Notes under the pieces: model-generated | What the model was told of the DNA's origin: nothing | The model's input: the letters and a program-made list of their open reading frames with translations, nothing else | Database searches by the model: none | Shown here: positions 1,537 to 62,450 of the stretch, piece after piece | How the letters are laid out: every line of letters begins with the position of its first letter | Position numbering within the stretch: position 1 is the first letter of the stretch | DNA from: a virus | Taxonomy: Duplodnaviria > Caudoviricetes | DNA length: 64,000 bases | IMG/VR virus record: IMGVR_UViG_3300020577_004340 | Span: 59,976 to 123,975 of that record | Direction: 5' to 3' (one strand) | Position numbers and translations under genes: made by a program

Positions 1537-2656
1537 ATTAAAAAATGTAATTAATGAGTGGTTTTCTCATTCCGATTCCGGATTTATAAATCCACCATAT
1601 AATGAGAAAGATTTAACATTATTGAAAATTATTGTTAACGAATCGGTTGATTTAACGGAAGATGACAAACAAAAATTGACAACACACATAAATAATAAAT
1701 TTAAAACACCTCCTACGCCTGAAAAGAAGGAAAAGCAAGATAGATTTATAGCAAAATCAGCACCATTCATTCAGGATGCTACTAGTTTTATACAATTTAT
1801 TAATCAAGAATATCTTAATCCAGGAATTGAAATTACAGGCTTGGAAGAATTATTTAATAATATTATTGCATTAGAAACTGAAGATTTTAATAATGTAGTT
1901 AAACTATTGGCAAAACATACTAATAGACAGATTGATTATGGTACGTTTAAAATGGGGCAATACGAATTAAAATTGGCAGAATTATTACATAACTCAATTA
2001 CATTAACAGGGGCTTCATATTTAAATTTATTACTTGCTATAATATTCAATGGAAAATTGTCGGGTACATTGGTACCGAATATATCAAAAATTGGAGTAAA
2101 TATTAATGGCGTGATGGTTATTAAAAACGCTTCAAGTGATTTATATGTTCCATTAATTAATTTCAATGATGAGTTATCAACTATTGTTAATAATTTAAGA
2201 ACATTAAATTCGGTTATCAATGATAATGATGGAACTGACACCATGTCTAATTCAGATTTAAATGAATTGTTAAAGGCATTACAAAATGGATCATTGGATG
2301 ATGATATTGCTAATATCATTAATCAATCGAAAACTACTAAAGTTGTTGCAATTAAGACTTTAGCTGGAAAGTTAGAACAAATGTTAAAGGGTAATAATAC
2401 ATCAACTATATATGAATTATTTAAAACGACTTATAATAGTTTAATTCAAGCTTCTAGTAAGAATATTACAAAAATATTTGATGTATTCTCCGATAAGATA
2501 TTAATTGAAACATTCTCTGATTTATATAATAAATTACTATTTAAAGATACTATTCCATCTAATATTGAATTGGGAAGTACTTCAATTAATATATCATCAG
2601 AACTATTAAATTTATCAGGAAAAGAAGAAAAAAATACTGAAAATAATCAACAATAA
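1526..2656 (+). CDS. Hypothetical protein
   Basis: 376-aa ORF overlapping the upstream stop; no recognised motif. Confidence 0.6.
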   Translation: MENKLKNVINEWFSHSDSGFINPPYNEKDLTLLKIIVNESVDLTEDDKQKLTTHINNKFKTPPTPEKKEKQDRFIAKSAPFIQDATSFIQFINQEYLNPGIEITGLEELFNNIIALETEDFNNVVKLLAKHTNRQIDYGTFKMGQYELKLAELLHNSITLTGASYLNLLLAIIFNGKLSGTLVPNISKIGVNINGVMVIKNASSDLYVPLINFNDELSTIVNNLRTLNSVINDNDGTDTMSNSDLNELLKALQNGSLDDDIANIINQSKTTKVVAIKTLAGKLEQMLKGNNTSTIYELFKTTYNSLIQASSKNITKIFDVFSDKILIETFSDLYNKLLFKDTIPSNIELGSTSINISSELLNLSGKEEKNTENNQQ

Positions 2657-2658
2657 AC

Positions 2659-2689
2659 TTTGAAATGTCAGAAAAAAAGTGTATATTAT
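2659..2689 (+). promoter_or_regulatory. Bacteroidota-type promoter (variant -7 box)
   Basis: TTTG-N19-TATATTAT upstream of the SSB gene. Confidence 0.55.
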
Positions 2690-2698
2690 AAAACAATT

Positions 2699-2722
2699 TA
2701 ATTAACTAATTAACTAATTAAC
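2699..2722 (+). repeat. Three perfect tandem TAATTAAC copies in the SSB leader
   Basis: Directly visible, ending 5 nt before ATG 2728. Confidence 0.85.
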
Positions 2723-2727
2723 AAACA

Positions 2728-3594
2728 ATGAATTTAGACAAAGTTAGAGCACGCCTTGCATCGATGAATACAGGGCAAAATCAGAAGAAGCACATTTGGA
2801 AGCCAGCTCCTGGCGATACGGTAATTAGAATAGTTCCGTATATTCACAATCCAGATTTCCCTTTTATGGAATTATATTTCCATTATGAGGTGACGAAACG
2901 TAGTGTGTTATCACCTATTATTAATGAAGATCCAGATCCAGTAGAAGAGTTTGCAGCTCAATTGAAATCAACTGGTGATCCAAACGATTATTCATTAGCT
3001 AGAAAAATTTCTCCAACTATGAGAACATATGTTCCAGTATTAGTTAGAGGCAAAGAAGACGAAGGTCCAAAATTTTGGGGATTTGGTAAAACTACTTACG
3101 AAGAATTATTAAAATTAATTGACGATCCAGATTGGGGGGATATTACATCTTTACGTGACGGAAGAGACATTGTTATTTCATACGAGAAAGGACAAGGTGA
3201 ATCGTATGCTAAGACTACTATTCGTCCAAAACCTAAAGCGACAGTAGCAACAGATGACAAGAATGTATTGGAATTGTTGGCGACTATGCCAAAAGTAGAA
3301 GACATTTGGCCGGTGGCTACTTATTCTGAGTTGAAAATTGCATTGGAACGATATATTAATAATATCGCTGGAGATGATGATTCAAACGATGAAGATGTTA
3401 AACCGGCAAATGAAAAGAGTTCTACACCTCCGCCAGCATCACCGGGTTATACAAATAAAGAAACGTTAGATGATGAATTTGCAGATTTATTAGATTCGAA
3501 ACCATCTGCTAAGAAGGCTGAAACGCCAACTAATAAATCACAAATCAAGGAGACTGTTAATATTGACGAGGCCTTCGACGAAATGTTTAAATAA
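2728..3594 (+). CDS. Single-stranded DNA-binding protein, T4 gp32-like
   Basis: WKP...IRIVP, KFWGFGKT, GDIT..DGRD motifs; acidic tail ending DEAFDEMFK; position beside the recombinase. Confidence 0.8.
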   Translation: MNLDKVRARLASMNTGQNQKKHIWKPAPGDTVIRIVPYIHNPDFPFMELYFHYEVTKRSVLSPIINEDPDPVEEFAAQLKSTGDPNDYSLARKISPTMRTYVPVLVRGKEDEGPKFWGFGKTTYEELLKLIDDPDWGDITSLRDGRDIVISYEKGQGESYAKTTIRPKPKATVATDDKNVLELLATMPKVEDIWPVATYSELKIALERYINNIAGDDDSNDEDVKPANEKSSTPPPASPGYTNKETLDDEFADLLDSKPSAKKAETPTNKSQIKETVNIDEAFDEMFK

Positions 3595-3608
3595 TCTAAA
3601 ATTTTTAA

Positions 3609-4811
3609 ATGGCAAAAACTAAAACGCCTGCCGTTGAGCCGGTTGTTGTTGAATCACTAACTAATGATTTATTGAAATCATTAAATATAAAGTTTAAGAA
3701 TCAACCGGACAAGGCAGCATTTTTCTTAAATGACCCTAATGTTACTTCCGATGTACATAGTTGGATTCCATCTGGAAATGATGTATTGGACATTGCAATA
3801 AGTAATCGACCGAATGGTGGATGGCCAGTTGGAAGAATTGTTGAATTGACAGGGTTAGAGGCTTCGGGCAAAAGTTTATTAGCCGCCCATGCCTTAAAAA
3901 ATACACAAGCTTTAGGAGGGGTAGCAGTTTACATAGATACCGAGTCTGCAGTCTCAGAACAATATTTGGCCGCCATTGGTGTTGATATACCTAAATTAAT
4001 TTATATGCCAATGGATGCCCTTGAAAATATATTTGAGGCGGTTGAGACTATTATATCCAAAGTTAGGGAATCTAGTAAAGACAGATTGGTTACAATTGTA
4101 ATAGATTCTATAATGGGAGCATCTACTATTGCTGAATTGGAATCTACATATGAAAAAGATGGGTATGCTACTTCGAAGGCAATTATTTTATCAAAGGCAA
4201 TGCGTAAATTACCATTGTTAATTGCCAGAGAAAATATATTGTTGATGATGACTAACCAATTACGAGTTAATCTAGGTGTTAGTTTTGGAGAAAAATACAG
4301 TACTTCTGGTGGAAAAGCAGTTGGGTTTGCTGCATCAGTTCGTGTTCGTTTGACAAATAAAAATAAAATTAAAATTAAACAAGAAAACGGATTGGAGGCG
4401 ATAGTTGGAATTAAAACCAATGCGAAAGTTACTAAAAATAGATTAGGCCCGCCATTGAGGGATGTTGATTATGATATTTATTTTGATTCAGGGGTGGACA
4501 ATTATGGTTCTTGGTTGGAAACATTGAAGGATTATAAGGTCGTAACATCTGGAACAAATTGGTCATTACCATTAACTGGAGATTTGGTTGGAATTGAATT
4601 GGTTGACCCGACAACTGGAGAAGTTAAAACATTTTCCGATGGCGTCATGAAATTCAAGTCTAAAGATTTTAAACAATGGTTGGTAGCCAATCCAAAATTC
4701 AAAGATATCTTATATAATATTTTATGTGACAAATTGATAATGAAATATAAGTTAAATGAAGATTTTGGGATTGATGATATATCATATGAAATAGACGACA
4801 ACGACGAATAA
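3609..4811 (+). CDS. recA: RecA/UvsX-like recombinase
   Basis: Walker A GLEASGKS, YIDTE, IVIDS, NQLR, SGGKA, KNRLGPP. Confidence 0.93.
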   Translation: MAKTKTPAVEPVVVESLTNDLLKSLNIKFKNQPDKAAFFLNDPNVTSDVHSWIPSGNDVLDIAISNRPNGGWPVGRIVELTGLEASGKSLLAAHALKNTQALGGVAVYIDTESAVSEQYLAAIGVDIPKLIYMPMDALENIFEAVETIISKVRESSKDRLVTIVIDSIMGASTIAELESTYEKDGYATSKAIILSKAMRKLPLLIARENILLMMTNQLRVNLGVSFGEKYSTSGGKAVGFAASVRVRLTNKNKIKIKQENGLEAIVGIKTNAKVTKNRLGPPLRDVDYDIYFDSGVDNYGSWLETLKDYKVVTSGTNWSLPLTGDLVGIELVDPTTGEVKTFSDGVMKFKSKDFKQWLVANPKFKDILYNILCDKLIMKYKLNEDFGIDDISYEIDDNDE

Positions 4812-10639: not shown

Positions 10640-11506
10640 ATGACAAAGATATTACCAAATAAATTACTTGTAAGTGAAAAATTTCTTTCAATTCAAGGAG
10701 AAGGAATTACCACAGGCGTACCGGCATACTTTATTCGATTAGCTAATTGTAATTTGCAATGTGGAAGTTCCATTAAATTTTTAAATTCAATAAAAAAAGG
10801 AACTGTAATACCAGACCCGAGTAAGCCATTTGTTGGCGATTTAGAAGAATCTGGTGAAGCTACTTGGTCATGTGATTCAACTGCTGTATGGTTGAGAGGT
10901 AACTATGTTGAATTTCAAGATATTATAGATGATTGGAAAGCTCAAGGAATTTATGACGACATTGAATCTGGACTGATTCATATAATATGGACAGGAGGTG
11001 AACCAACAATTAAACAACATCAAGAAAGTATTTATAATTTCAATGAATACTGGAAAGATATGGTATATGGTAACTCACCAGCATACCAACACTCTACTTT
11101 CCAGGCAATGACTCCATTCCAAGAAATTGAAACGAATGGTACTAATTTATTAACATATGACTTGTTTGTAGGTATTAATCAAATTAATTGTTCTCCTAAA
11201 TTATCAAATTCCGGAATGGCAGCTAAACAACGTATCAATCCTAATGTTATCACACAATTCAAAAATCATTGGAATGTCCAATTTAAATTTGTAGTATCAA
11301 CTGAAGATGATATAATTGAAATGTTTAATGATTTTATTACCCCATTTAATATTCCACTAAAAAATGTGGTATGTATGCCAGCATTAACTTCACAAAAAGA
11401 TTTCTTTGAACGTACAAAATGGATAATGGAAATGGCAAAAAAATATAAATTTATTGGATTGACGAGAAATCATATTGCGGCATGGAATGAATTAACTGGA
11501 GTTTAA
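10640..11506 (+). CDS. queE: 7-carboxy-7-deazaguanine synthase (radical SAM)
   Basis: SIQGEG..TG.PA.FIRL..CNL.C, WSCDS, TGGEP, IETNGT, CSPK, KFVV. Confidence 0.9.
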   Translation: MTKILPNKLLVSEKFLSIQGEGITTGVPAYFIRLANCNLQCGSSIKFLNSIKKGTVIPDPSKPFVGDLEESGEATWSCDSTAVWLRGNYVEFQDIIDDWKAQGIYDDIESGLIHIIWTGGEPTIKQHQESIYNFNEYWKDMVYGNSPAYQHSTFQAMTPFQEIETNGTNLLTYDLFVGINQINCSPKLSNSGMAAKQRINPNVITQFKNHWNVQFKFVVSTEDDIIEMFNDFITPFNIPLKNVVCMPALTSQKDFFERTKWIMEMAKKYKFIGLTRNHIAAWNELTGV

Positions 11507-11847
11507 TGACAAAAAGAGAGGTATTTGAATATATTACTAAAACATATCCCAAATACATTTCTAGAGAAAGTGAAGTATTAGATGAAGTATATATATGGAT
11601 TGTTGAACCATATAAACATTATTTAGATATTGTTGAATTACTATTTTATTTAAATAAGAATGGTTGGGCATGCACATATTATAAATCTATACTGTATAAC
11701 AACTCAAAGAAAAGAGATATATTTGTAAAAACCGAAGTATTGGATGCTATTAATAGGAAGATATTTTATAAATTATATCTATCATTTACTCCGAAAGATA
11801 AATTAAATTACGATTTAAATATAATAAAGAAAAAAAATAGAATATGA
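11506..11847 (+). CDS. Hypothetical protein
   Basis: ORF translationally coupled to queE and dut. Confidence 0.55.
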   Translation: MTKREVFEYITKTYPKYISRESEVLDEVYIWIVEPYKHYLDIVELLFYLNKNGWACTYYKSILYNNSKKRDIFVKTEVLDAINRKIFYKLYLSFTPKDKLNYDLNIIKKKNRI

Positions 11848-12281
11848 TAGTCAAAGTTAAAAAAAATGATAAAATGCCCCCATTAGCGTATGCAACAGAT
11901 GGGTCAGCAGGATTTGATATTGCAGCATCGGATACAGTTGTAATAAATCCAGGAGAAACTAAATTGATTCCAACTGGTATATTTATGGAAATACCTCCAA
12001 ATTGGGAATTACAGATTAGACCGAGAAGTGGCGTCACATTAAAGACTAAATTAAGAATTGCCAATTCTCCTGCCACAATCGATTCTGATTTTCGTGGCGA
12101 GATTCTTGTATTGATTGACCATATTGGGTTAAAAGGAGATTCTGAACCCGTAACAATAACTCCAGGGTATAGAATTGCTCAAGGAGTGTTAATGCCTGTA
12201 AGGCGTGCTACATTCGTGTATGTGGATGATCTCTCCACTACGGATAGAGGTGATGGTGGATTTGGAAGTACTGGAGTTTAA
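11844..12281 (+). CDS. dut: Trimeric dUTPase
   Basis: AGFDI, RPRSG, TIDSDFRGEI, RIAQ, RGDGGFGSTG. Confidence 0.96.
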   Translation: MIVKVKKNDKMPPLAYATDGSAGFDIAASDTVVINPGETKLIPTGIFMEIPPNWELQIRPRSGVTLKTKLRIANSPATIDSDFRGEILVLIDHIGLKGDSEPVTITPGYRIAQGVLMPVRRATFVYVDDLSTTDRGDGGFGSTGV

Positions 12282-12543: not shown

Positions 12544-13281
12544 ATGAGTATTTTTGAAGGAATTAGCGTTGTCAATGGGGAATTAAATTTTGATTGGGGT
12601 AAAGACTCGAGTCAAGATGTAATTCCTTTGAAAATACAGAACTACAATAAGCGGGTATCAACAATATCTAAATTCCCATATTATCTGGCATATCGTTTTC
12701 CTAAAACAGTCCCCAAAGAATCTAAAGATCGAGTTAGGGAATTAATAAAATATTTAAAGACTCCTAAAACAAAAGATGTTGAATTGATGGTTAATAAGGC
12801 AGTTATGCAATTTAATAATATTGATTCGTTAAATTCATATGATACTGTTGTATTACCCCAATCAAGTAGCGTCTTATTAAAATTGATATTATCAAAAATA
12901 AAGCCTAAATTAAATCAACATGTCACGATTACCAACCAAGCAATTGTAAAATTGCATGCAAGTGAAGTGACATTTAAAATGGATAAATTTGAAAAGTTAA
13001 ACGACATACAAAAGAAAGCATTTGTAAAGGCTGTAATGTCAAAGAAAAATTTAGATAATTTCAAAATGACAAATCTCCACGCCAGACAACGTTCATTAAT
13101 TGACCAGTTTTTATCATTATCCAATGATTTTTGGATTAGTAAGATTGTAAATAAGAAAGTATTATTTATTGATGATATAACCACAACGGGTGCAACAGTT
13201 GCAGCAGCTTCAAAATTATTATTGGATAAAGGTGCTAATAAAGTAATGTCTTTTATATTCTTAGGCCAACAAGATATTTAA
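12544..13281 (+). CDS. Type I phosphoribosyltransferase-domain protein
   Basis: PRPP-binding motif VLFIDDITTTGAT; LPQSSS loop. Confidence 0.75.
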   Translation: MSIFEGISVVNGELNFDWGKDSSQDVIPLKIQNYNKRVSTISKFPYYLAYRFPKTVPKESKDRVRELIKYLKTPKTKDVELMVNKAVMQFNNIDSLNSYDTVVLPQSSSVLLKLILSKIKPKLNQHVTITNQAIVKLHASEVTFKMDKFEKLNDIQKKAFVKAVMSKKNLDNFKMTNLHARQRSLIDQFLSLSNDFWISKIVNKKVLFIDDITTTGATVAAASKLLLDKGANKVMSFIFLGQQDI

Positions 13282-14275: not shown

Positions 14276-14896
14276 ATGAGTGATATTTTATTAAAATACG
14301 CTAATGATAACATTCAATTAACCCATACTGAACGGGAGAATGTTATAACAAAAGCTGCCGAGGCATATGCTTTATTTTTAGATGCATTGCAAATTGATTG
14401 GAAAAATGACCCTAATTCGAGTAATACCCCATTACGAGTAGCTAAATCGTATGTTAATGATTTGATAACTGGTTGTTATGTACCGCCACCAGATGCTACA
14501 GCATTTGATAATTTACAGAATTATGATGGCATAGTATGTCAGACAAATATAGAAGTGAATTCAATATGTTCACACCACCACCTTCCATTCATTGGGAAAG
14601 CCCACGTTGCATACATCCCCGGTAAAAAAGTAGTTGGGTTATCAAAGCTAAATAGAATTGTTGAGTGGTTCTCTAGACGACCACAAGTCCAAGAAAATTT
14701 AACAATGCAAATACATGATTTTGTAAATGTAATATGTGAAGGAAATGGGGGTGTAGCTGTAATGATTGAATGTAATCATTTATGTGCATGTCTACGTGGG
14801 GTGAAACATGATTCTGTAATGAAGACGGCAAAATTGTCTGGTGCATTTAAAACAGATGAAATGGCTAGAGAAGAATTTTATAATTTTGTAAAATAA
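14276..14896 (+). CDS. folE: GTP cyclohydrolase I
   Basis: TPLRVAK, SICSHHHLPFIG, GLSKLNRIV, RRPQVQE, HLCACLRGV. Confidence 0.95.
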   Translation: MSDILLKYANDNIQLTHTERENVITKAAEAYALFLDALQIDWKNDPNSSNTPLRVAKSYVNDLITGCYVPPPDATAFDNLQNYDGIVCQTNIEVNSICSHHHLPFIGKAHVAYIPGKKVVGLSKLNRIVEWFSRRPQVQENLTMQIHDFVNVICEGNGGVAVMIECNHLCACLRGVKHDSVMKTAKLSGAFKTDEMAREEFYNFVK

Positions 14897-17493: not shown

Positions 17494-19590
17494 ATGTATC
17501 AAAATATATATTTCGATAAATTCCAAAATGAAATCCATATTTGGGATGACAAGACGGGGTATGACCGAGTTAAATTCAAAAATTATGCTTATTTATTAAA
17601 TGATACTGGAGATTACACTACAATTGATGGGGCAAGATGTAATAAGGTATATAGTTGGTCTGAAACTGCTGTTAAAACTAAAATGGTATGTGAACATGAT
17701 GTTCCGGAGACAACTAGATATTTAATTGATAGATATGGAGATTCAGATGCCGTTTCTGATAATGTAATTACAATGTTCTTTGACATTGAGGTAGCTAAAG
17801 AGGGAAAATATAGTACGCCAGAAGATGCAAACAATACAATTACATCAATTGCATATTATACTGAATTGCATGGTTACCATACATTGTTATTGGATAAACA
17901 TAATCCACCTAGAACATACACAACGATAATTAAACCAGATAAAAAAGAACTTAGTATAGAGGTTAAAACATTTAATGATGAAAAATCATTATTGTTTGCT
18001 TTTTTAAAGGAATACCGAAATATTAGCCCCCATATATTAACTGGTTGGAATATTGATTACTATGATATTCCTTATTTATACAACAGAATGATAAATGTTT
18101 TGGATGTTCAATATGCCAATCAATTATCACCTATAAATAAAGTCAGAGTAAAGAAATATGACAATAACAATATAATTCAAATTGCAGGGGTTACCGCATT
18201 AGATTACTTGATGTTGTATAAGAAATTTACTTATGCGGAGCAATCTAATTATAGATTAAATACAATATCTAATATAGAGCTTAAACGTTCTAAAATAGAA
18301 TATACAGGGGATTTAGATTATTTATATTCAACTGATATTAATAAATTTATCGAATATAATGTTGTCGACGTTGATTTAGTATTGGAACTAGATAGAAAAT
18401 TAGATTTAATTAATATAGCTAGGGGTATATGCCATAAAGGACATGTGTCATACGATGATATCGTTTTTACTAGTAAATATCTGGATGGTGCAGCATTGAC
18501 ATATTGTCGTAGAAACAATTTAATTGCAACCAGTACCAGAACAAGTGGAGAATCAACAACTGCTGAAGGGGCATATGTAAAAGACCCAACGCCTGGGTTG
18601 TATAAATGGGTATATGATTTGGATTTAACATCATTATATCCAATGAATATTATTAGTCTAAATATTTCACCTGAGACTAAATTCGCAAAAATATTAAATT
18701 GGGATGAAGAGGATTATGTTAATTCCCCTAATAAATTGTATAATATTAAATTATTCCGAGATGATACTGTTTTAGGAAATTTTAGTAATGAATTTGGAGT
18801 AAAAAGCGATTCAGTTAGAATATCTGGTAGCCAAGCTTTGTTGGAATTTGTTAAAAAACATAATTTATCAATTGCATCCAATGGAGTGATGTACACATTA
18901 GATAAGATTGGATTGATACCAGCAATATTAGATACTTGGTTTGCTGATAGAGATGATTTTAAAAATTTACGAAAGCAATATGAAAAGTCGGGTGATTTAG
19001 TCTTGGCTGCATATTATGATAAGCAGCAATTAATTACTAAAATTATGTTGAACTCTTTTTATGGGGTGTTATTGCTTGAATCATTTAGAGTTTATGACAT
19101 AGACAGCGGCGAAGCGGTTACAATTACTGGAAAATCGGTAATTAAATGGGGAAGTAAAATGGCTAATTATTTCTATAATAAAAAGTTAGGAAATGAACAT
19201 ATTACAGATTATACTATATATATTGATACGGATTCGGTAGCGGGTGATTCAAACATTATAGTTAACGGGGATACCCCCAGAACGTTAGATGATGTATTTG
19301 CAGATTCAATTAAAAATTCGTATTTTGTAGACTCCAATCATAGAGAATTTACATTTCCATCAATTAAATTGCCATATTATGATGAATCTACAAAATCAGT
19401 TAAATTAGGAGATGTTGAATATATTGAGCGCCATTACATAAAAAAGCGAAGATACAAAATTACACTAAAATCTGGAAAGCATATAGTAGTGACCGAAGAT
19501 CATAGTGTTATGGTGGAATTGGATAATGGGGAGTTGGTACAAAAATTGACTAAAGATCTAACAATATCCGATAAAGTAATTTCTATTTAA
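17494..19590 (+). CDS. Family B DNA polymerase N-terminal precursor (N-extein plus split-intein N-half)
   Basis: ExoI FFDIE, ExoII GWNIDYYDIPY, motif A DLTSLYP, motif B KIMLNSFYG, ends at YIDTD followed by intein sequence. Confidence 0.93.
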   Translation: MYQNIYFDKFQNEIHIWDDKTGYDRVKFKNYAYLLNDTGDYTTIDGARCNKVYSWSETAVKTKMVCEHDVPETTRYLIDRYGDSDAVSDNVITMFFDIEVAKEGKYSTPEDANNTITSIAYYTELHGYHTLLLDKHNPPRTYTTIIKPDKKELSIEVKTFNDEKSLLFAFLKEYRNISPHILTGWNIDYYDIPYLYNRMINVLDVQYANQLSPINKVRVKKYDNNNIIQIAGVTALDYLMLYKKFTYAEQSNYRLNTISNIELKRSKIEYTGDLDYLYSTDINKFIEYNVVDVDLVLELDRKLDLINIARGICHKGHVSYDDIVFTSKYLDGAALTYCRRNNLIATSTRTSGESTTAEGAYVKDPTPGLYKWVYDLDLTSLYPMNIISLNISPETKFAKILNWDEEDYVNSPNKLYNIKLFRDDTVLGNFSNEFGVKSDSVRISGSQALLEFVKKHNLSIASNGVMYTLDKIGLIPAILDTWFADRDDFKNLRKQYEKSGDLVLAAYYDKQQLITKIMLNSFYGVLLLESFRVYDIDSGEAVTITGKSVIKWGSKMANYFYNKKLGNEHITDYTIYIDTDSVAGDSNIIVNGDTPRTLDDVFADSIKNSYFVDSNHREFTFPSIKLPYYDESTKSVKLGDVEYIERHYIKKRRYKITLKSGKHIVVTEDHSVMVELDNGELVQKLTKDLTISDKVISI
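19234..19587 (+). mobile_element. Split intein N-half (118 aa, Ser1)
   Basis: Starts SVAGDS directly after YIDTD; block B VVTEDHS; ends DLTISDKVISI-stop; contains no Cys. Confidence 0.88.
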
Positions 19591-19591
19591 A

Positions 19592-19693
19592 CAACATCCA
19601 GATATCGAGGATGTTCTTATAATATGGGAAAGTGATTTTAGAAACAACAAAACTGAAACAATTAAAAAATGTCTAGAATTTATAAACCAGTAA
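19592..19693 (+). pseudogene. Relic C-terminus of a Vsr/DUF559-like endonuclease gene
   Basis: Alternate frame reads QHPDIEDVLIIWESDFRNNKTETIKKCLEFINQ-stop with no start codon; overlaps the intein-C start. Confidence 0.6.
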
Positions 19694-19806
19694 CAGATGA
19701 AATTTCTTCAATCGAAGAGTTGCCATTGGAAGATGTGTATATGTATGACATTGGGATGAAAGATAGTCCCCACACCTTTTTTGCCAATAATATATTGGTA
19801 CACAAC
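19669..19806 (+). mobile_element. Split intein C-half (46 aa)
   Basis: Block F YMYDIGM..PHTFFAN and terminal VHN with Ser+1. Confidence 0.88.
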
Positions 19807-20622
19807 AGTTTATTTTTACCAATACTTCCATTATTAAATGATGTTAATATTGAAGAGTTAACAGATACAGAATTAATTGAATTGGCTAAACCATTAGTTA
19901 AAGAAGTTCAAGAATTTATAAATACATCATACACACCATATGCGAAGAAATTCCATATGATAGATACTCACCGTTGGGACATTAAACAAGAATTAATTGC
20001 TAGACGAGCCTTTTGGATTACAAAGAAAAGGTATGCTCAATGGATAGTTGTTAAAGAAGGATTTCCCATAGAAAAATTGGATGTGAAGGGTTTGGACGTA
20101 GTTAGATCATCATTTCCAACAGCATTTAGAAATTTATTAAAACAAGTTTTAATTGACATTTTACATGATAAATCTAAAAAAGATTTAGATATATTATTGT
20201 TAAATTTCAAAAAAACAGTTAATACCACTGAATTAAATAACATTTTATTCCCTACAGGTGCAAAGGAAATTAAAAAATATGAAACTGGTGTTATAGGTAG
20301 AGTTAAATCTGGAACTCCAGCACATATCAAATCTGCTATTAATTATAACCATTTAATGGATTTGTTTAATATTGTAGATATACCAAAAATATCAGATGGG
20401 GATAAAATATTATGGGGATATTTACACAATAATCCGTATAATTTCGAATCTTTAGCTATAACTGGTAATTTCGATGATGAAAAGATTATTGAATTTATGG
20501 AGAAATATGTAGATAAAAATAAAATATTTGAATCAGGACTGTTAAAAAAACTTCAGGCATATTGGGATGCTATGGGATGGGGAAAAATTACATTTAATTC
20601 CAATGTTAATAAATTTTTCTAG
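19669..20622 (+). CDS. Family B DNA polymerase C-terminal precursor (split-intein C-half plus C-extein)
   Basis: Intein end FFANNILVHN then SLF; KKRYA, VKGLDVVRSS. Confidence 0.93.
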   Translation: MSRIYKPVTDEISSIEELPLEDVYMYDIGMKDSPHTFFANNILVHNSLFLPILPLLNDVNIEELTDTELIELAKPLVKEVQEFINTSYTPYAKKFHMIDTHRWDIKQELIARRAFWITKKRYAQWIVVKEGFPIEKLDVKGLDVVRSSFPTAFRNLLKQVLIDILHDKSKKDLDILLLNFKKTVNTTELNNILFPTGAKEIKKYETGVIGRVKSGTPAHIKSAINYNHLMDLFNIVDIPKISDGDKILWGYLHNNPYNFESLAITGNFDDEKIIEFMEKYVDKNKIFESGLLKKLQAYWDAMGWGKITFNSNVNKFF

Positions 20623-21564: not shown

Positions 21565-22107
21565 ATGGAATATAAGAAATTATTGAGTGAAAATGAAATT
21601 GACACTATTGTAGACAGTTTAGCTTTCTATTTATCGAGGGATTATTTAGATGAAACCAATCAATATTTATTTGTCAATGTATTAGATGGAGGCACTCCTT
21701 TTTTTAATTTATTGTATGATAAATTAGATAACACACGGTTTAAATTAATTCCAGATTCTGTAAAATGTAAATCATATACTGGTGTGAATACAACGGGTTG
21801 GAAATTAATACAACCGATTCATAATACCGATGAAACAATTAAGAAAGTTATAATAGTTGATGACATTCTAGATAGTGGACTTACATTATATAATTTAACA
21901 GATTATTTTATGGAATTAGGATTTAACGAAATAATTTGTGTTACACTATTGGAAAAAGATGTACTTAATAAAACATATCATCCTGTCCCCAAATATATAT
22001 CGGGTCATTACATAAATGACATTTGGGTTTGTGGTTTTGGTATGGATTCAATAGATGGAACCCGCAGGGATGCGAGAGAAATATATCAAATATTAATGTT
22101 AATATAA
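21565..22107 (+). CDS. Hypoxanthine-guanine phosphoribosyltransferase-like
   Basis: VLDGG, KSY, VIIVDDILDSGLT, LLEK, WVCGFGMD. Confidence 0.85.
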   Translation: MEYKKLLSENEIDTIVDSLAFYLSRDYLDETNQYLFVNVLDGGTPFFNLLYDKLDNTRFKLIPDSVKCKSYTGVNTTGWKLIQPIHNTDETIKKVIIVDDILDSGLTLYNLTDYFMELGFNEIICVTLLEKDVLNKTYHPVPKYISGHYINDIWVCGFGMDSIDGTRRDAREIYQILMLI

Positions 22108-22451
22108 TTGTAATGGAGGTAATAAGGCATTTATTTGGAATGTGTGGTGAACATTCACACCCGTCCATATTCAATATAGGGATGATTATCCCAGAAGTGT
22201 ATTTTGTAATTAAAATAGTCAAACATCTGTTTTATGGGAAAACGAAAACAGACATTTCGCCAAGGAAATTTGTTATATAATACAGTAGATAATTATTTTT
22301 GTATTTATATACAAAAAAATACTAAATTTAATTATCATCATATATTTCAGTTGGAAGAAGGTAATATTGTTGGGATGTACGTAGTAAAGGGGACAGAACT
22401 CACTATACCAAATACAATACCAGAATATTTAAATCATTTAATTAATTAATT

Positions 22452-23265
22452 ATGGGAAAAAAACAGTATATTACTAGAAAAGGGAATTTTGATTCGGGGC
22501 ATCGTGTTATGAACGAACGTCTTAAATGTTTTCATGTCCATTTTTAATTGATGGTGGACACTAAATTGGGTGAATTGCTGGAACGCTAAGTTATTTAATA
22601 TGCCAATCAGCAGCCAAGACTAACTTAGGTTTAAAGAGTTAGTAAGGTTCAGAGACTAGGAAGTGAGCCTAACAATATTCTTCCCACGAGCGCCCAACAC
22701 TTATTAATAGGTGATGATATAGTCCGAACTTATAAGAAATTATAAGAAGTGAATGATAAAGAACTTTCACGATAACATTTTGGGTCATACGTATTTGTAT
22801 CAATTAACTTTTTCCTTTAATTCCATGGAAGAAATTGGTTATGCAATTGATTTTAAAGAAATCAAAAGAGTAATGTGTCAATGGATAGACGATTATTTAG
22901 ATCACGGTATAATTTTAAATCCACATGATTCAGTATTAATATCAGCTGCTGCAGAGTTAGGCAGTAAAATGTGGTTAATGTCCCTAAATGGGATTGGCGA
23001 ATATTGTAACCCATCAGTAGAGAATATCGCTAAAGAAGTGTGCATTGCAATTGATACTTTGACGAGACTTTTATATGCCAAATCCTCTACTAAATTAACT
23101 TTACATAAAGTTAAAATATATGAAACACCTAATTGTTTTACTACAATTAAAAGAGAAGATATACCTAAAAGTGAAGTGAATAATTTTTTAGATAAAAACA
23201 TGCAATTTCTTGTTGATTATGCTAAAGAAAAGGGTGTTGTTCAATACGATGATAGAAAATTGTAA
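22452..23265 (+). CDS. queD: 6-carboxytetrahydropterin synthase, spliced (exons 22452-22541 and 22783-23265; 190 aa)
   Basis: Joined exons give FDSGHRV..KCFHVH|GHTY (CxxxHGH), IDFKEIK, LDHG, NPSVENIA, YETP. Confidence 0.88.
22542..22782 (+). ncRNA. Group I intron (IA-like, ORF-less, 241 nt) in queD
   Basis: P GAATTGCTGGAA, Q AATCAGCAG, R GTTCAGAGACTA, S GATATAGTCC; P3 TTGGGTG/CGCCCAA; P7 GACTA/TAGTC; P1 TGTCCAT/GTGGACA with U.G at the splice site; terminal G. Confidence 0.92.
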
Positions 23266-23501: not shown

Positions 23502-24546
23502 GAGAATATATATCTTCGATAATTCAACTTCTGGACTAAGATATAATATTCAATGGAGTAAGTTTATTCCAGATGAATTACAATCTTGGGGTTATGAAGT
23601 TCAGGTTATAAGTGGCCTTGAATTAAATTACCATAAGTTGGGTTATCGAGGAAATATATTAAATAGTGGCGCCCTAATAACTAATTTAGGGAATCTATTA
23701 TTGGAAAGTAATTTAACTGAAAAAAGTATTTTTATATTCCCTGAAGCAAGAAATCCAATGGTCATTTATCTTAATGAATTACGTCAAATGTATGATTTAG
23801 ATATTACAATTATTGGGTGGTGGAATGACCATACATTCAATACCGATGGGAATATACGAAAACAATTTTCCAGAAGAAAACGAGATTGGACGGTTAAAGT
23901 TGATAGAGCCTTAATGTCGGCATATGATTATAATATGTGTTACACAGATCGACAATATAAGGTATTAAGTTACAACAACCGCCATGAAAAGAATATATAT
24001 AAATGTTGTTTGCCATTATCGAGTATCAATGGAGAAAATGTAGATAGATTGTTAGGATATGATTATACAAAGGAAGACAGAATTATCATTAATACTAATT
24101 TTAACAATCGTTATGACCCTGATTTTATAAAGACATTACAGTTATTATATAAAGATTATGAATTTCATGTAGTACACGAACAGAATTTAACATATAAAGA
24201 ATATTATCAGATTGTACGTAAGAGTAAACTTTGTATTAATGTTAATCAGACTGATACTACACCTTGGTCAATTTATGAAAATTTAGTTTTAGGAGCAATT
24301 CCAATACTACCTGCCACTGAATTATACACACATATATTTTCAGAAAAACAATGTTTATTTTTTAAAAAACACTTGATGAAAAAACCTTATATTAAATACA
24401 TGAGAAACACTGAACATATTACAGAATATGTTAAACGTTTATTAACCGATTATGACGATATGTATGCGCAATTGGATATTCAAAGCATCCATGACGCATA
24501 TTTCAATTCAAACGATTTAAAACAGATTTTAAATGAGCTTAAATAG
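23494..24546 (+). CDS. Divergent GT-B glycosyltransferase-like protein
   Basis: Collinear with 15249-16235 (RY..., LTYKEYY, LGAIPILP) but HAGS and ExxxxxxxE motifs are altered. Confidence 0.55.
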   Translation: MSKRIYIFDNSTSGLRYNIQWSKFIPDELQSWGYEVQVISGLELNYHKLGYRGNILNSGALITNLGNLLLESNLTEKSIFIFPEARNPMVIYLNELRQMYDLDITIIGWWNDHTFNTDGNIRKQFSRRKRDWTVKVDRALMSAYDYNMCYTDRQYKVLSYNNRHEKNIYKCCLPLSSINGENVDRLLGYDYTKEDRIIINTNFNNRYDPDFIKTLQLLYKDYEFHVVHEQNLTYKEYYQIVRKSKLCINVNQTDTTPWSIYENLVLGAIPILPATELYTHIFSEKQCLFFKKHLMKKPYIKYMRNTEHITEYVKRLLTDYDDMYAQLDIQSIHDAYFNSNDLKQILNELK

Positions 24547-25165
24547 AAACATTGAAAATACCTTATGGGTAGAAAAATACAGACCAAAAACAATGGACGA
24601 TTATGTTGGTAATCAATCGATAATCGATACTATTAAAACGTATATTGAGAATGATGATATTCCAAATCTATTATTATATGGTAGTGCAGGAACTGGTAAG
24701 ACAACGTTGGGAAAAATCGTAACTAATACACTTGATTGTGATTGTCTATATATAAATGCGTCCGATGAAAATAATATTGATACTGTTCGAGATAAGATTA
24801 AATCATTTGTTAGCTCAATTGGTTTTAAGAAATGGAAATTGGTATTTTTAGACGAATGTTTAGAAGCGGGTACATTAGTTCGTATCTTGAGAAATGGGGG
24901 TGAAATATCCATACCAATTGAAGATTTGGACCCAATTAATGATTTAGTTAAATCATTTAATGTTGATACAAAATGTATTGAGTGGGTTCCGTTTACATTG
25001 TATTACAAAGATATACAGAATATTTGGGAAATTGAATTAGAGAATGGATTTATTATTAGATGTACAGATGACCATAAATGGTATGTATTAGATGACGTTG
25101 GAGAGACGATAGTAGTAAAAACGATTGATTTACATAAATATGACCATATATTAAGTCCAAAGTAA
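24533..25165 (+). CDS. Clamp loader (RFC/gp44-like) N-terminal precursor plus split-intein N-half
   Basis: LWVEKYRP, GSAGTGKTT, INASD, LVFLDE followed by intein CLEAGT. Confidence 0.92.
   Translation: MSLNRNIENTLWVEKYRPKTMDDYVGNQSIIDTIKTYIENDDIPNLLLYGSAGTGKTTLGKIVTNTLDCDCLYINASDENNIDTVRDKIKSFVSSIGFKKWKLVFLDECLEAGTLVRILRNGGEISIPIEDLDPINDLVKSFNVDTKCIEWVPFTLYYKDIQNIWEIELENGFIIRCTDDHKWYVLDDVGETIVVKTIDLHKYDHILSPK
24857..25162 (+). mobile_element. Split intein N-half (102 aa, Cys1)
   Basis: CLEAGTLV start; block B IRCTDDHKW. Confidence 0.88.
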
Positions 25166-25206
25166 TACATATAAATTTAAAAACATGTTGTATATGTGGT
25201 GTTGGT

Positions 25207-26445
25207 ATGACTAAAAATCATTTACGTCGGCATAACATATCTAGACGGGAGTATTATGATTTATATGTAAAGAGTGATACTGAAGGTATTTGTAATGGGT
25301 GTGGAATACCAACACAATTCATTAGCTGTACCTTTGGATATATAAATAATTGTATATTATGTTCTAACCGTTTAATAGGAAAAAACAAAGCGGATACAAA
25401 TAAAAAGAAATTAATAAAATGTACATGTAAAATATGTAATACAGAATTTTTAAATAAAATTTTTAGAAATATATGTACTAGTCGTAAATGTCGAATATAC
25501 ATTCAAACATGTCCAATAGATGATTATACAAAGGTATCGTTCATTGAATATATGAGTTGCCCATATTGTAATAAAAAATTTAATAAGTTATCCGGTTTCA
25601 AAACTCATTTACGTACTCATTTTTCGTTCGAACGCGTGCCTGAGATTCTACAATATATTGGAATGTCCGTTTGGAAAACGGCTATACCAAAATGTAAATA
25701 TTGTAATAATTTATTTATTGAAAAATATTCCGATAAATTCTACAATTCAGTTGGACAATGTTGTCCGGAGTGTTTTGAGTCCAAGATATGGTTATCTAAT
25801 GAATTTCGTGACAGAAAGGCGATAGGTAAAAAAATTGGGGAAACTAGAAAAATTACCAATAAAACTGAAAGAGGTAAAGCTATTCTGAAGAGAGTTGGCG
25901 AAATAAATTCCAAGAAAATGCAGTTATATTTAAAAACTGATATTGGTAAAGAATCTATGTTATTACGTGCGAAGAAGAATTCAATTAAGATGAAGAAGAA
26001 TATTGCAAATGGCAAATTCACTCCATGTATTACAAATTCTTGGACACATTGGAAATCACAGATAATTTTAGAAGACGGTACAATTAAAAAATTTAGAAGT
26101 AGTTGGGAAGCATGTGTATGGAATAGTAATAGGCATTTGGAGTATGAAACAATTAGGATACCATATCAATACAATGAAGACACTAAAAATTATGTTGCTG
26201 ATTTTTACGACAAAGAAACCAATACTATATATGAAATAAAACCAAAAAAGACTTGGGATAAAGTTCATACTAAAATGGAACAGGTGATATTTTATTGTTC
26301 AGAAAAAAAGATTAATTTTATTTGGATAAATGAAGATAATATATTATCTTATATAAACACTTTAGATTTTGAAGGTGAGAATTTAACACAATTAAATAAA
26401 TTATACAATGGAATTACAACAAATAAAAATAAAAACAATAACTAA
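25207..26445 (+). CDS. Free-standing putative homing endonuclease (zinc fingers plus TnsA-like PD-(D/E)XK domain)
   Basis: Multiple CxxC/C2H2 motifs; FRSSWE, YETIRIPY, YVADF, IYEIKP; inserted between intein halves in a different frame. Confidence 0.75.
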   Translation: MTKNHLRRHNISRREYYDLYVKSDTEGICNGCGIPTQFISCTFGYINNCILCSNRLIGKNKADTNKKKLIKCTCKICNTEFLNKIFRNICTSRKCRIYIQTCPIDDYTKVSFIEYMSCPYCNKKFNKLSGFKTHLRTHFSFERVPEILQYIGMSVWKTAIPKCKYCNNLFIEKYSDKFYNSVGQCCPECFESKIWLSNEFRDRKAIGKKIGETRKITNKTERGKAILKRVGEINSKKMQLYLKTDIGKESMLLRAKKNSIKMKKNIANGKFTPCITNSWTHWKSQIILEDGTIKKFRSSWEACVWNSNRHLEYETIRIPYQYNEDTKNYVADFYDKETNTIYEIKPKKTWDKVHTKMEQVIFYCSEKKINFIWINEDNILSYINTLDFEGENLTQLNKLYNGITTNKNKNNN

Positions 26446-27148
26446 TACACAAACAAGTTCGCCTGTTTATGATTTAACTGTTCCGTCGAATCATAATTTT
26501 TTTATTGGAGAGTCGGGGGACATATTAACCCACAATTGTGATTATTTGACGACCAATGCCCAATCAGCATTAAGAAATTTAATAGAAACATTTTCTAAGA
26601 ATTCACGTTTCATTTTAACATGTAATTATGTCGAAAAGATATTAGACCCTATACAAAGTCGGTGCACAGCATTTCAAATTCATCCCCCGACACAACAAGA
26701 TATCGCAAAAAGATTGTTTACAATATGTAAGGCAGAAGATATTAAATGTGAATTACCAGATATAGTAACAATTGTTAAAAAGACGTATCCAGATATTAGA
26801 AGATCTATAATGTCATTGCAACAGCAAAGTATTTCAGGTGAATTGAAATTGAATAATGATTTGTTGTTGGAAACTGGCTATCTTGGATTAATATTGACTG
26901 AACTATGTAATATTAAAGACCCGAAGACAACATACAAAAATATACGAAAGATAATTGCCGATTCTAAAGTTAGAACATTTGAATCTTTATACAGATTTTT
27001 ATATGATAATTTAGATTCTTACAGTAAAGCAAACCAAGCAAACATTATATTAATAATTGCAAGATATCAATATCAAGATTCGTTCGTTGTTGACAAGGAG
27101 ATAAATGTAATGGCAATGCTACTAGAAATATTTTCGGAACTAAAATAA
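26408..27148 (+). CDS. Clamp loader C-terminal precursor (43-aa split-intein C-half at 26408-26536 plus C-extein)
   Basis: VYDLTV..NHNFF..ILTHN|CDYLT.NAQSALR, FILTCNY, IQSRC, DIRR. Confidence 0.92.
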   Translation: MELQQIKIKTITNTQTSSPVYDLTVPSNHNFFIGESGDILTHNCDYLTTNAQSALRNLIETFSKNSRFILTCNYVEKILDPIQSRCTAFQIHPPTQQDIAKRLFTICKAEDIKCELPDIVTIVKKTYPDIRRSIMSLQQQSISGELKLNNDLLLETGYLGLILTELCNIKDPKTTYKNIRKIIADSKVRTFESLYRFLYDNLDSYSKANQANIILIIARYQYQDSFVVDKEINVMAMLLEIFSELK

Positions 27149-62380: not shown

Positions 62381-62450
62381 AGTCAGGTGGCGGAATGGTA
62401 GACGCTAGTCATATGGATGAAAGGTACAGGTTCGAATCCTGTCCTGACTA
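62381..62450 (+). tRNA. tRNA-like element with degenerate anticodon arm (no assignable isotype)
   Basis: Acceptor stem AGTCAGG/CCTGACT, D-arm GCGGAATGGTAGACGC, T-arm ACAGG-TTCGAAT-CCTGT; only 20 nt between the D and T arms. Confidence 0.7.

Follow-up and report, generated by a model that had tools for sequence, protein, structure and literature searches.

A compact IA-like group I intron within the zinc-binding motif of a queD-like gene from an uncultured marine phage

Results and discussion

A group I intron of 241 nt was located at positions 22542-22782 of a marine phage DNA, inside the coding sequence for the CxxxH|GH zinc-binding motif of queD, and sequence comparison confirmed it as a genuine member of its class. 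It is very probably a functional, self-splicing phage intron of the IA-like kind, which holds no open reading frame (ORF) and interrupts the only queD (CPH4 synthase, PTPS-I type) of its contig. The intron itself is an ordinary, well-known mobile phage intron and its mechanism is not new; what is new is the host gene. The DNA analysed (the window, 64000 nt) was taken from a 124-kb IMG/VR contig (IMGVR_UViG_3300020577_004340, positions 59976 to 123975) with about 30% GC and an estimated completeness of 66%, which belongs to an uncultured T4-like marine phage. All coordinates below are window positions unless a locus (L followed by a number) is named.

Exons and boundaries of the split queD gene

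The Infernal-type search with the Rfam group I model RF00028, which an earlier sequence-only reading had proposed as a check, gave a full-length match (model positions 1-253) at 22514-22746 on the plus strand, with a score of 110.4 bits against a gathering threshold of 50 and an E value of 8e-28. It was the one group I intron that RF00028 found in the whole 124-kb contig. The gene and its intron were delimited as follows.

22452-22541, plus strand: queD exon 1, 30 aa (MGKK...KCFHVH), with His17, the catalytic Cys26 and the zinc ligand His30
22542-22782, plus strand: group I intron, 241 nt, ORF-less, IA-like (P7.1 present, P2 absent)
G22782, plus strand: omega-G, the terminal intron guanosine at the 3' splice site
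22783-23265, plus strand: queD exon 2, 160 aa plus stop, first residues GHTY

The boundaries at 22542-22782 were fixed by the split of the PTPS profile together with the colinearity of intron-less homologues. In the Pfam PTPS profile (PF01242), exon 1 matched positions 1-25 (17.5 bits) and exon 2 matched positions 26-120 (62 bits), and three intron-less genes from IMG/VR (L002, L003 and L004; 57-63% identical) read contiguously as ...KCFNIH GHTY... across the intron site. The ORF-less intron of 241 nt that had been postulated is thus exact in its bounds, and the proposed split of CFHVH|GHTY was borne out as well, with exon 1 ending in CFHVH and exon 2 beginning with GHTY at consecutive PTPS positions. 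The 5' splice site lies directly after U22541, which forms a U.G pair with G22554. At the other end lies a GGG run, of which only G22782, as the last intron base, leaves exon 2 in frame and regenerates HGH. Within the 241 nt, no open frame is long enough for an endonuclease.

When joined, the exons encode a QueD-like protein of 190 aa, and homologues typically have 190-192 aa. Exon 1 was 77-86% identical to the N-termini of homologues, exon 2 matched phrog_2389 (QueD-like), and queD was the sole PTPS-family gene of the contig. Joining of the exons creates C26-F-H-V-H30/G31-H32, that is CxxxHGH, a motif which is absent before joining. It has been reported that CxxxHGH is the signature of QueD (PTPS-I), CxxxxxHGH that of PTPS-II and ExxHGH that of PTPS-III (PMC5041015), and that in the QueD motif both histidines ligate zinc while catalysis falls to the cysteine (bioRxiv 10.1101/2023.04.13.536721). 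With P0002, the closest intron-less homologue, as intermediate, CxxxHGH was aligned to KCGRLHGH of E. coli QueD (4NTM). The cut-off of TIGR03367, the NCBIfam QueD equivalog (89.25), was reached neither by exon 2 (35.4 bits) nor by the intron-less P0002 (65.6 bits). The protein is therefore called QueD-like, and its enzymatic product is a presumed one.

The ORFs drawn on the unspliced DNA do not represent this protein. One (22452-22547) consists of exon 1 followed by a single Phe codon and TAA, and the other (22753-23265) begins with MIKNFHDNIL before it continues into GHTY.... Public databases call a truncated protein of 170 aa (P0001/P0121) from the ATG at 22753, which lies inside the intron. 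Such public proteins (170 aa, or 146 aa), starting in the intron, lack the catalytic Cys and two Zn ligands, so that reconstructions of 7-deazaguanine DNA modification would score these phages as QueD-defective or QueD-less.

Directly upstream of queD, a 71-aa ORF (22234-22449) fills the gap to an HGPRT-like gene and matches no Pfam or PHROGs family. It was considered as an endonuclease remnant and rejected as such, since it belongs to no family and has no similarity to the HNH protein of locus L002.

Predicted secondary structure and proposed splicing

A model comprising P1 to P9.1 was built from the Rfam alignment and by inspection. Its elements, all on the plus strand, are listed below.

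22535-22541 with 22554-22560, plus strand: P1, exon bases against the internal guide; U22541.G22554 marks the 5' splice site
22545-22547, plus strand: in-frame TAA, one codon into the intron, which would stop ribosomes leaving exon 1
22550-22552 (GAU, guide side) with 22784-22786 (GUC, exon 2), plus strand: candidate P10, 3 bp
22566-22572 with 22691-22697, plus strand: P3, enclosing P4-P6, the 5' strand of P7 and P7.1
22576-22581 with 22607-22612, plus strand: P4
22585-22586 with 22602-22603, plus strand: P5
22591-22592 with 22597-22598, plus strand: P5a, only 2 bp in the window
22613-22614 with 22647-22648, plus strand: P6
22619-22626 with 22636-22643, plus strand: P6a
G22652-C22725, bulged A22653, and 22654-22658 with 22720-22724, plus strand: P7, forming a pseudoknot with P3; contains the R and S consensus elements
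22659-22663 with 22680-22684, plus strand: P7.1 hairpin with a 16-nt loop, a peripheral element typical of subgroup IA
22698-22713, plus strand: P8 hairpin, 6 bp, UUAA loop
22729-22746, plus strand: P9 hairpin, 7 bp, GAAA tetraloop at 22736-22739
22749-22770, plus strand: P9.1 hairpin with the conserved loop AUAAAGAA; holds the ATG at 22753, the false start of the database ORF

The elements named in the sequence-only reading, namely P1 with its U.G splice-site pair, P3, P7, P8, a P7.1-type extension and the terminal G, are all present, and the fold is supported by covariation. Its P10 has to be revised: a P10 was retained in a candidate 3-bp form, and the claimed pairing ATGGT/GTCAT was discarded because two of its bases also belong to P1 (3' strand), which makes the two helices mutually exclusive. 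The comparison favours GAU/GUC as the better candidate, weakly, as it draws on two sequences only, the window and L126 (GUC/GAC in the same register). The minimum free energy fold recovered P1, P3, P7.1, P8, P9 and P9.1 (z = -2.35).

P7.1 forms a 30-nt insertion relative to the Rfam consensus. In the predicted fold it supplies the extra helix between P7 and the 3' strand of P3 that characterizes subgroup IA in the Michel-Westhof scheme, and the intron is referred to as IA-like. The pair G22654-C22724 in P7 is presumed, by analogy, to bind guanosine. The internal loop GCUAAG/UAUGC in the P4-P5a region (22576-22612) resembles in its motif the 11-nt GAAA-tetraloop receptor and might serve as one. 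Introns of bacterial genes are known to have in-frame stops near their start, which keep ribosomes off the ribozyme (PMC3984707).

In the proposed course of splicing, the pre-mRNA would fold into P1-P9.1 and ribosomes on exon 1 would halt at the TAA one codon into the intron. An exogenous guanosine nucleotide, held in P7, would attack after U22541; G22782 would next enter the G site, and the exons would be ligated as ...GTCCAT|GGTCAT.... The product would be the 190-aa protein with a complete C26-x3-H30-G31-H32 zinc/catalytic motif. Unspliced RNA would yield only a peptide of 31 aa, or a protein shortened at its N-terminus, without Cys26, His17 and His30. We infer the splicing chemistry (because of family membership), the guanosine-binding pair and the acquisition route discussed below.

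Covariation across related introns

When IMG/VR was scanned with a pattern for the R...S core, 119 related introns were retrieved, and the 21 closest were aligned with the window intron (alignment A1, n = 22). In A1, 84.2% of the cells were paired, compared with 31-41% when the 3' partners were slid, and the covariation score was 0.455 against 0.08-0.10 for the slid arrangements; none of 500 shuffles reached the observed values. Double changes were seen in 47 of the 64 pairs and supported P3, P5a, P6a, P7.1, P8 and P9. At the level of single helices, five of the seven pairs of P3 were changed on both sides (84% of cells paired), all eight pairs of P6a covaried (94% paired), as did five of five in P7.1, five of six in P8 (95% paired) and every pair of P9. 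P7 is invariant in A1 because the search pattern fixed its bases, and is thus without independent comparative support. P1 and P9.1 align poorly between the different host genes in A1; for P9.1, which contains a U.U mismatch, the family alignment is weak and 61% of cells were paired.

A second queD lineage carrying the intron

Metagenomes were scanned for the 3' tail of the intron family followed by GGNCAYAC, and loci L124 and L126 were obtained, which come from two samples and are 99% identical to each other. L125 also fits this pattern and was set aside as a chance match, having neither queD nor an Rfam intron. The queD gene of L126 is arranged as follows.

L126 6269-6183, minus strand: queD exon 1
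L126 6182-5939, minus strand: intron, 244 nt
L126 5938-5465, minus strand: queD exon 2

The L126 intron scored 101.7 bits in Rfam and occupies the same queD site as that of the window. When the Rfam gathering search was run over three loci at once this intron was missed, and with L126 alone it was found (a filter effect); absence of an intron in such multi-source runs is therefore unreliable. In L126 the TAA is formed by intron bases 1-3, so that in both lineages an in-frame stop follows the 5' splice site at once or after one codon.

The two introns are 78% identical, and exon 2 is 56% identical in protein and 68.5% in DNA. Of the 68 pairs compared, 46 were unchanged, 15 were changed on both sides and still paired, two had become wobble pairs and five were broken, mostly at alignment gaps. 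The differences were enriched at paired positions (34/126, compared with 12/115 at unpaired ones). Six of the eight P6a pairs were doubly changed; A22735-U22740 in P9 is replaced by G-C in L126, and G22751-C22768 in P9.1 by A-U. In P1, the exon change G22536>A (GTC>ATC, a Val to Ile codon) is matched by C22559>U in the guide. The middle pair of the candidate P10 was also doubly changed, from GAU/GUC in the window to GUC/GAC in L126, at the third position of a Gly codon. The maintenance of pairing through 15 double changes implies selection on splicing. With one site, divergent alleles and a compensatory change between exon and guide, these introns are a clean natural case of an ORF-less intron.

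The DNA identity between window and L126 was 76% in exon 1, 78% in the first 120 nt of exon 2 and 65% in its distal part. Co-conversion was considered as a reading of the higher identity near the intron and was not adopted, since the conserved N-terminal half of QueD explains it equally well.

Distribution of the intron among queD homologues

In 117 of the 120 best-matching database homologues, CxxxH runs straight into GH. The exceptions are the cluster of the window itself (P0001/P0121), P0003 and P0020. P0003 is 70% identical, and its N-terminus, MIKSFHGNNL|GHTY, corresponds to the translated 3' end of an intron of the window's family; P0020 starts with M|GHTY. The DNA encoding P0003 was not found in viral contigs, genome contigs or cultured phages, and its intron is therefore deduced from the protein only. 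The same queD site is thus occupied in at least one other sequenced lineage (L124/L126) and, judging from these protein starts, probably in two more. The window allele itself recurs in several samples.

In an IMG/VR survey, the best 80 of 115 queD relatives were uninterrupted over the whole gene; the survey favours contiguous matches and is biased against split genes, and the figure is a lower bound on intron-less alleles. On a quick maximum likelihood tree of 124 exon-2 sequences, the intron-bearing rows require at least four gains or losses. Intron-less sisters were found for all three intron-bearing alleles checked: P0002 for the window clade (support 96), P0008 for P0003 (94) and L003 for L126 (99). 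This patchy pattern indicates either horizontal spread or repeated precise loss.

Origin of the intron and possible homing

The closest relatives of the window intron reside in genes for the large subunit of ribonucleotide reductase (RNR), in L047 and in Pseudoalteromonas phage J2-1. Other relatives were found in ThyX (L032), in three kinds of major capsid protein (L026, L013 and L053) and in a tape-measure-like gene (L097); none of the 119 related IMG/VR introns is hosted by queD. HNH or homing-endonuclease ORFs read into the ribozyme core in L047, L032, L035, L059 and L012. Both queD introns, of the window and of L126, are free of an endonuclease ORF, and no endonuclease gene flanks queD in either locus. 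An intron-encoded homing endonuclease, by which mobile introns are recognized, is accordingly absent from the window intron.

In L094 (334-954), L015 and L031, two introns of the family lie a few hundred bases apart. In L094 the open frame downstream is similar to the one in L012, which matches capsid protein E only weakly.

We propose that the intron came from this mobile family, whose other members are found in genes for RNR, ThyX and capsid proteins, often with HNH genes of their own, and that it would have reached queD by horizontal transfer. It would have been inserted where the gene is most conserved and would now be a neutral, selfish passenger. Any particular mechanism of mobility at the queD site is conjecture.

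The queD locus of L002 (IMGVR_UViG_3300005613_000130, 2026-4214) is crowded with selfish genes. After an 89-aa fragment of the queD N-terminus (2026-2295) there is a free-standing HNH gene (2265-2912) which overlaps the start of the full, intron-less queD (2905-3483); then come a GIY-YIG-like ORF (3555-4214), queE, folE and another GIY-YIG-like ORF from 5780. From its gene order the locus looks like the scar of endonuclease-driven gene conversion.

Instead of being a neutral passenger, the intron could have been kept or spread because it disrupts a homing endonuclease site in the CxxxHGH-coding sequence, serving as weapon or shield in competition between phages. That would amount to collaborative homing or to immunity, on the model of the cyanophage psbA intron and F-CphI. 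Such a mechanism has been documented in phages (PMC3984707), the distribution of the intron is patchy, the intron is ORF-less though its relatives carry HNH genes, and in L002 an HNH gene abuts queD next to a queD fragment and GIY-YIG-like ORFs. However, queD is without a flanking endonuclease gene in the window and L126, the duplication junction of L002 lies near residue 66, away from the intron site, and the L002 HNH, which was examined as a shared endonuclease and rejected, is not similar to the HNHs that the introns of L047 and L032 encode. We regard this explanation as unlikely. Little confidence is likewise placed in its more specific form, in which CAT|GG in the zinc-ligand motif of queD would be a recurrent homing target in marine Bacteroidota-type phages and a putative trans-acting endonuclease would spread the intron and protect its carrier; if that were true, a DNA-hypermodification gene would be a locus of phage-phage interference competition. 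In a still rarer variant, splicing would gate 7-deazaguanine synthesis.

Pathway context and retention of function

Further genes of the 7-deazaguanine pathway were identified in the window.

10640-11506: queE-like gene, weak match
14276-14896: folE, 170 bits
14905-15252: DpdL-like T-fold protein, 115 aa; its LSNVHRHMF corresponds to the published DpdL signature LxxxHRHxF

The DpdL-like protein is 44% identical to a protein of Cellulophaga phage phiST. No queC was found in the contig; in L126 and L002, queC adjoins queD. The presence of a DpdL-like protein and the absence of queC suggest a 2'-deoxy-7-deazaguanine pathway of the phiST type, and from this gene content the queD product most likely supplies CPH4 for a DNA modification.

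The gene directly upstream of the 71-aa ORF and queD (21565-22107) is HGPRT-like, with 74.6 bits, below the cut-off. Within the 7-deazaguanine cluster there are also a PRTase/PRPP-synthetase-like gene (12544-13281) and a dUTPase gene (11844-12281). Together, the HGPRT-like, PRTase-like and dUTPase genes hint that the modified base could arise at the nucleotide level, through base salvage.

The absence of queC bears on whether the gene still works, since by the classical scheme the pathway is incomplete without it. The intron might have decayed to a non-splicing relic, with queD a pseudogene and the phage using the QueD of its host or skipping the pathway; the shortness of P5a and P10 could be read in the same way. 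This is very improbable. A set without queC (folE, queD, queE-like and DpdL-like genes) matches the type of Cellulophaga phage phiST, neither exon is damaged or out of frame and every motif residue is kept, the allele recurs in several samples, and despite an intron divergence of 22% the pairing was preserved by the 15 double changes, which extend to the pairing of exon and guide in P1.

The least credible possibility is that splicing is regulatory, guanosine dependence or 7-deazaguanine intermediates at the G site tuning QueD to the guanine-nucleotide pool. Circumstantially, the pathway draws on GTP and the ribozyme on a guanosine cofactor, and an allosteric group I ribozyme controlled by c-di-GMP exists in Clostridioides difficile. 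Against it, the guanosine Km of group I introns is micromolar and cellular GTP is millimolar, so the cofactor should saturate; no riboswitch or other RNA family lies by the intron (the Rfam matches in the window are the intron and a single tRNA); closely related introns reside in capsid, RNR and ThyX genes, which have no link to GTP; and the intron is missing in 117 of the 120 close homologues and in the best 80 of 115 IMG/VR relatives. The link between guanosine-dependent splicing and GTP levels, which the sequence-only reading had put forward as speculation, thus found no support, with no sensor RNA nearby and relatives in unrelated genes.

Relation to known systems

The intron resembles the subgroup IA introns of phages (T4 td, nrdB and nrdD, Twort orf142, SPO1, Bastillevirinae) in its P1-P9 core, the P3/P7 pseudoknot, the R and S consensus elements, a P7.1 placed between P7 and P3', the splice-site U.G pair, the terminal G and the early in-frame stop. 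It also shares with them insertion at a highly conserved, catalytically critical codon and relatives that carry HNH endonucleases. It differs from them in its host gene queD, in the absence of P2 and of an ORF, and in being very compact (241 nt).

The intron of the RNR alpha gene of Pseudoalteromonas phage J2-1 (MF370964, between ASU03313 and ASU03314) was among the closest matches from cultured phages, with 74% identity over the P3-P9 core, and it likewise is unannotated and lies between the halves of a split gene. Its host gene (RNR) and its exon-specific guide sequence are different. Like the psbA intron of cyanophage S-PM2, the queD intron is ORF-less and patchily distributed, and its conserved insertion site lies in an auxiliary metabolic gene of a T4-like marine phage (PMC3984707). 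The S-PM2 intron is paired with the free-standing F-CphI (collaborative homing); for the queD intron a partner endonuclease is hypothetical, and the analogy is one of mechanism only. The encoded protein agrees with QueD/PTPS-I (E. coli 4NTM and phiST-type clusters) in its PTPS fold family, its CxxxHGH motif and its folE, queE-like and DpdL-like neighbours. It departs from this type by scoring below the NCBIfam cut-off, by a C-terminal extension of about 70 aa and by the splitting of its gene by an intron.

A full-text literature search yielded no paper in which phage group I introns are linked with queD, with 7-deazaguanine genes or with 6-pyruvoyl-tetrahydropterin synthase, and the main text of recent phage intron surveys mentions neither queD nor queuosine. 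That queD is an unusual host gene, as had been claimed, holds in so far as it is unreported in the literature searched and hosts 0 of the 119 related introns. It holds less well in another respect, as queD is a nucleotide/DNA-modification gene, and phage introns are known to favour genes of nucleotide metabolism (PMC12350094). The list of intron-invaded phage genes is thereby extended to a gene for a DNA-modification precursor.

Other split genes were observed in the window. PolB (17494-20622) and a clamp-loader ATPase (24533-27148) are each represented by two ORFs, with matches to intein N- and C-terminal splicing domains at the break, and the halves of the clamp-loader gene are separated by a gene for a 412-aa endonuclease (25207-26445). 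A tRNA gene (62381-62450; RF00005, 44.2 bits) is located near the end of the window.
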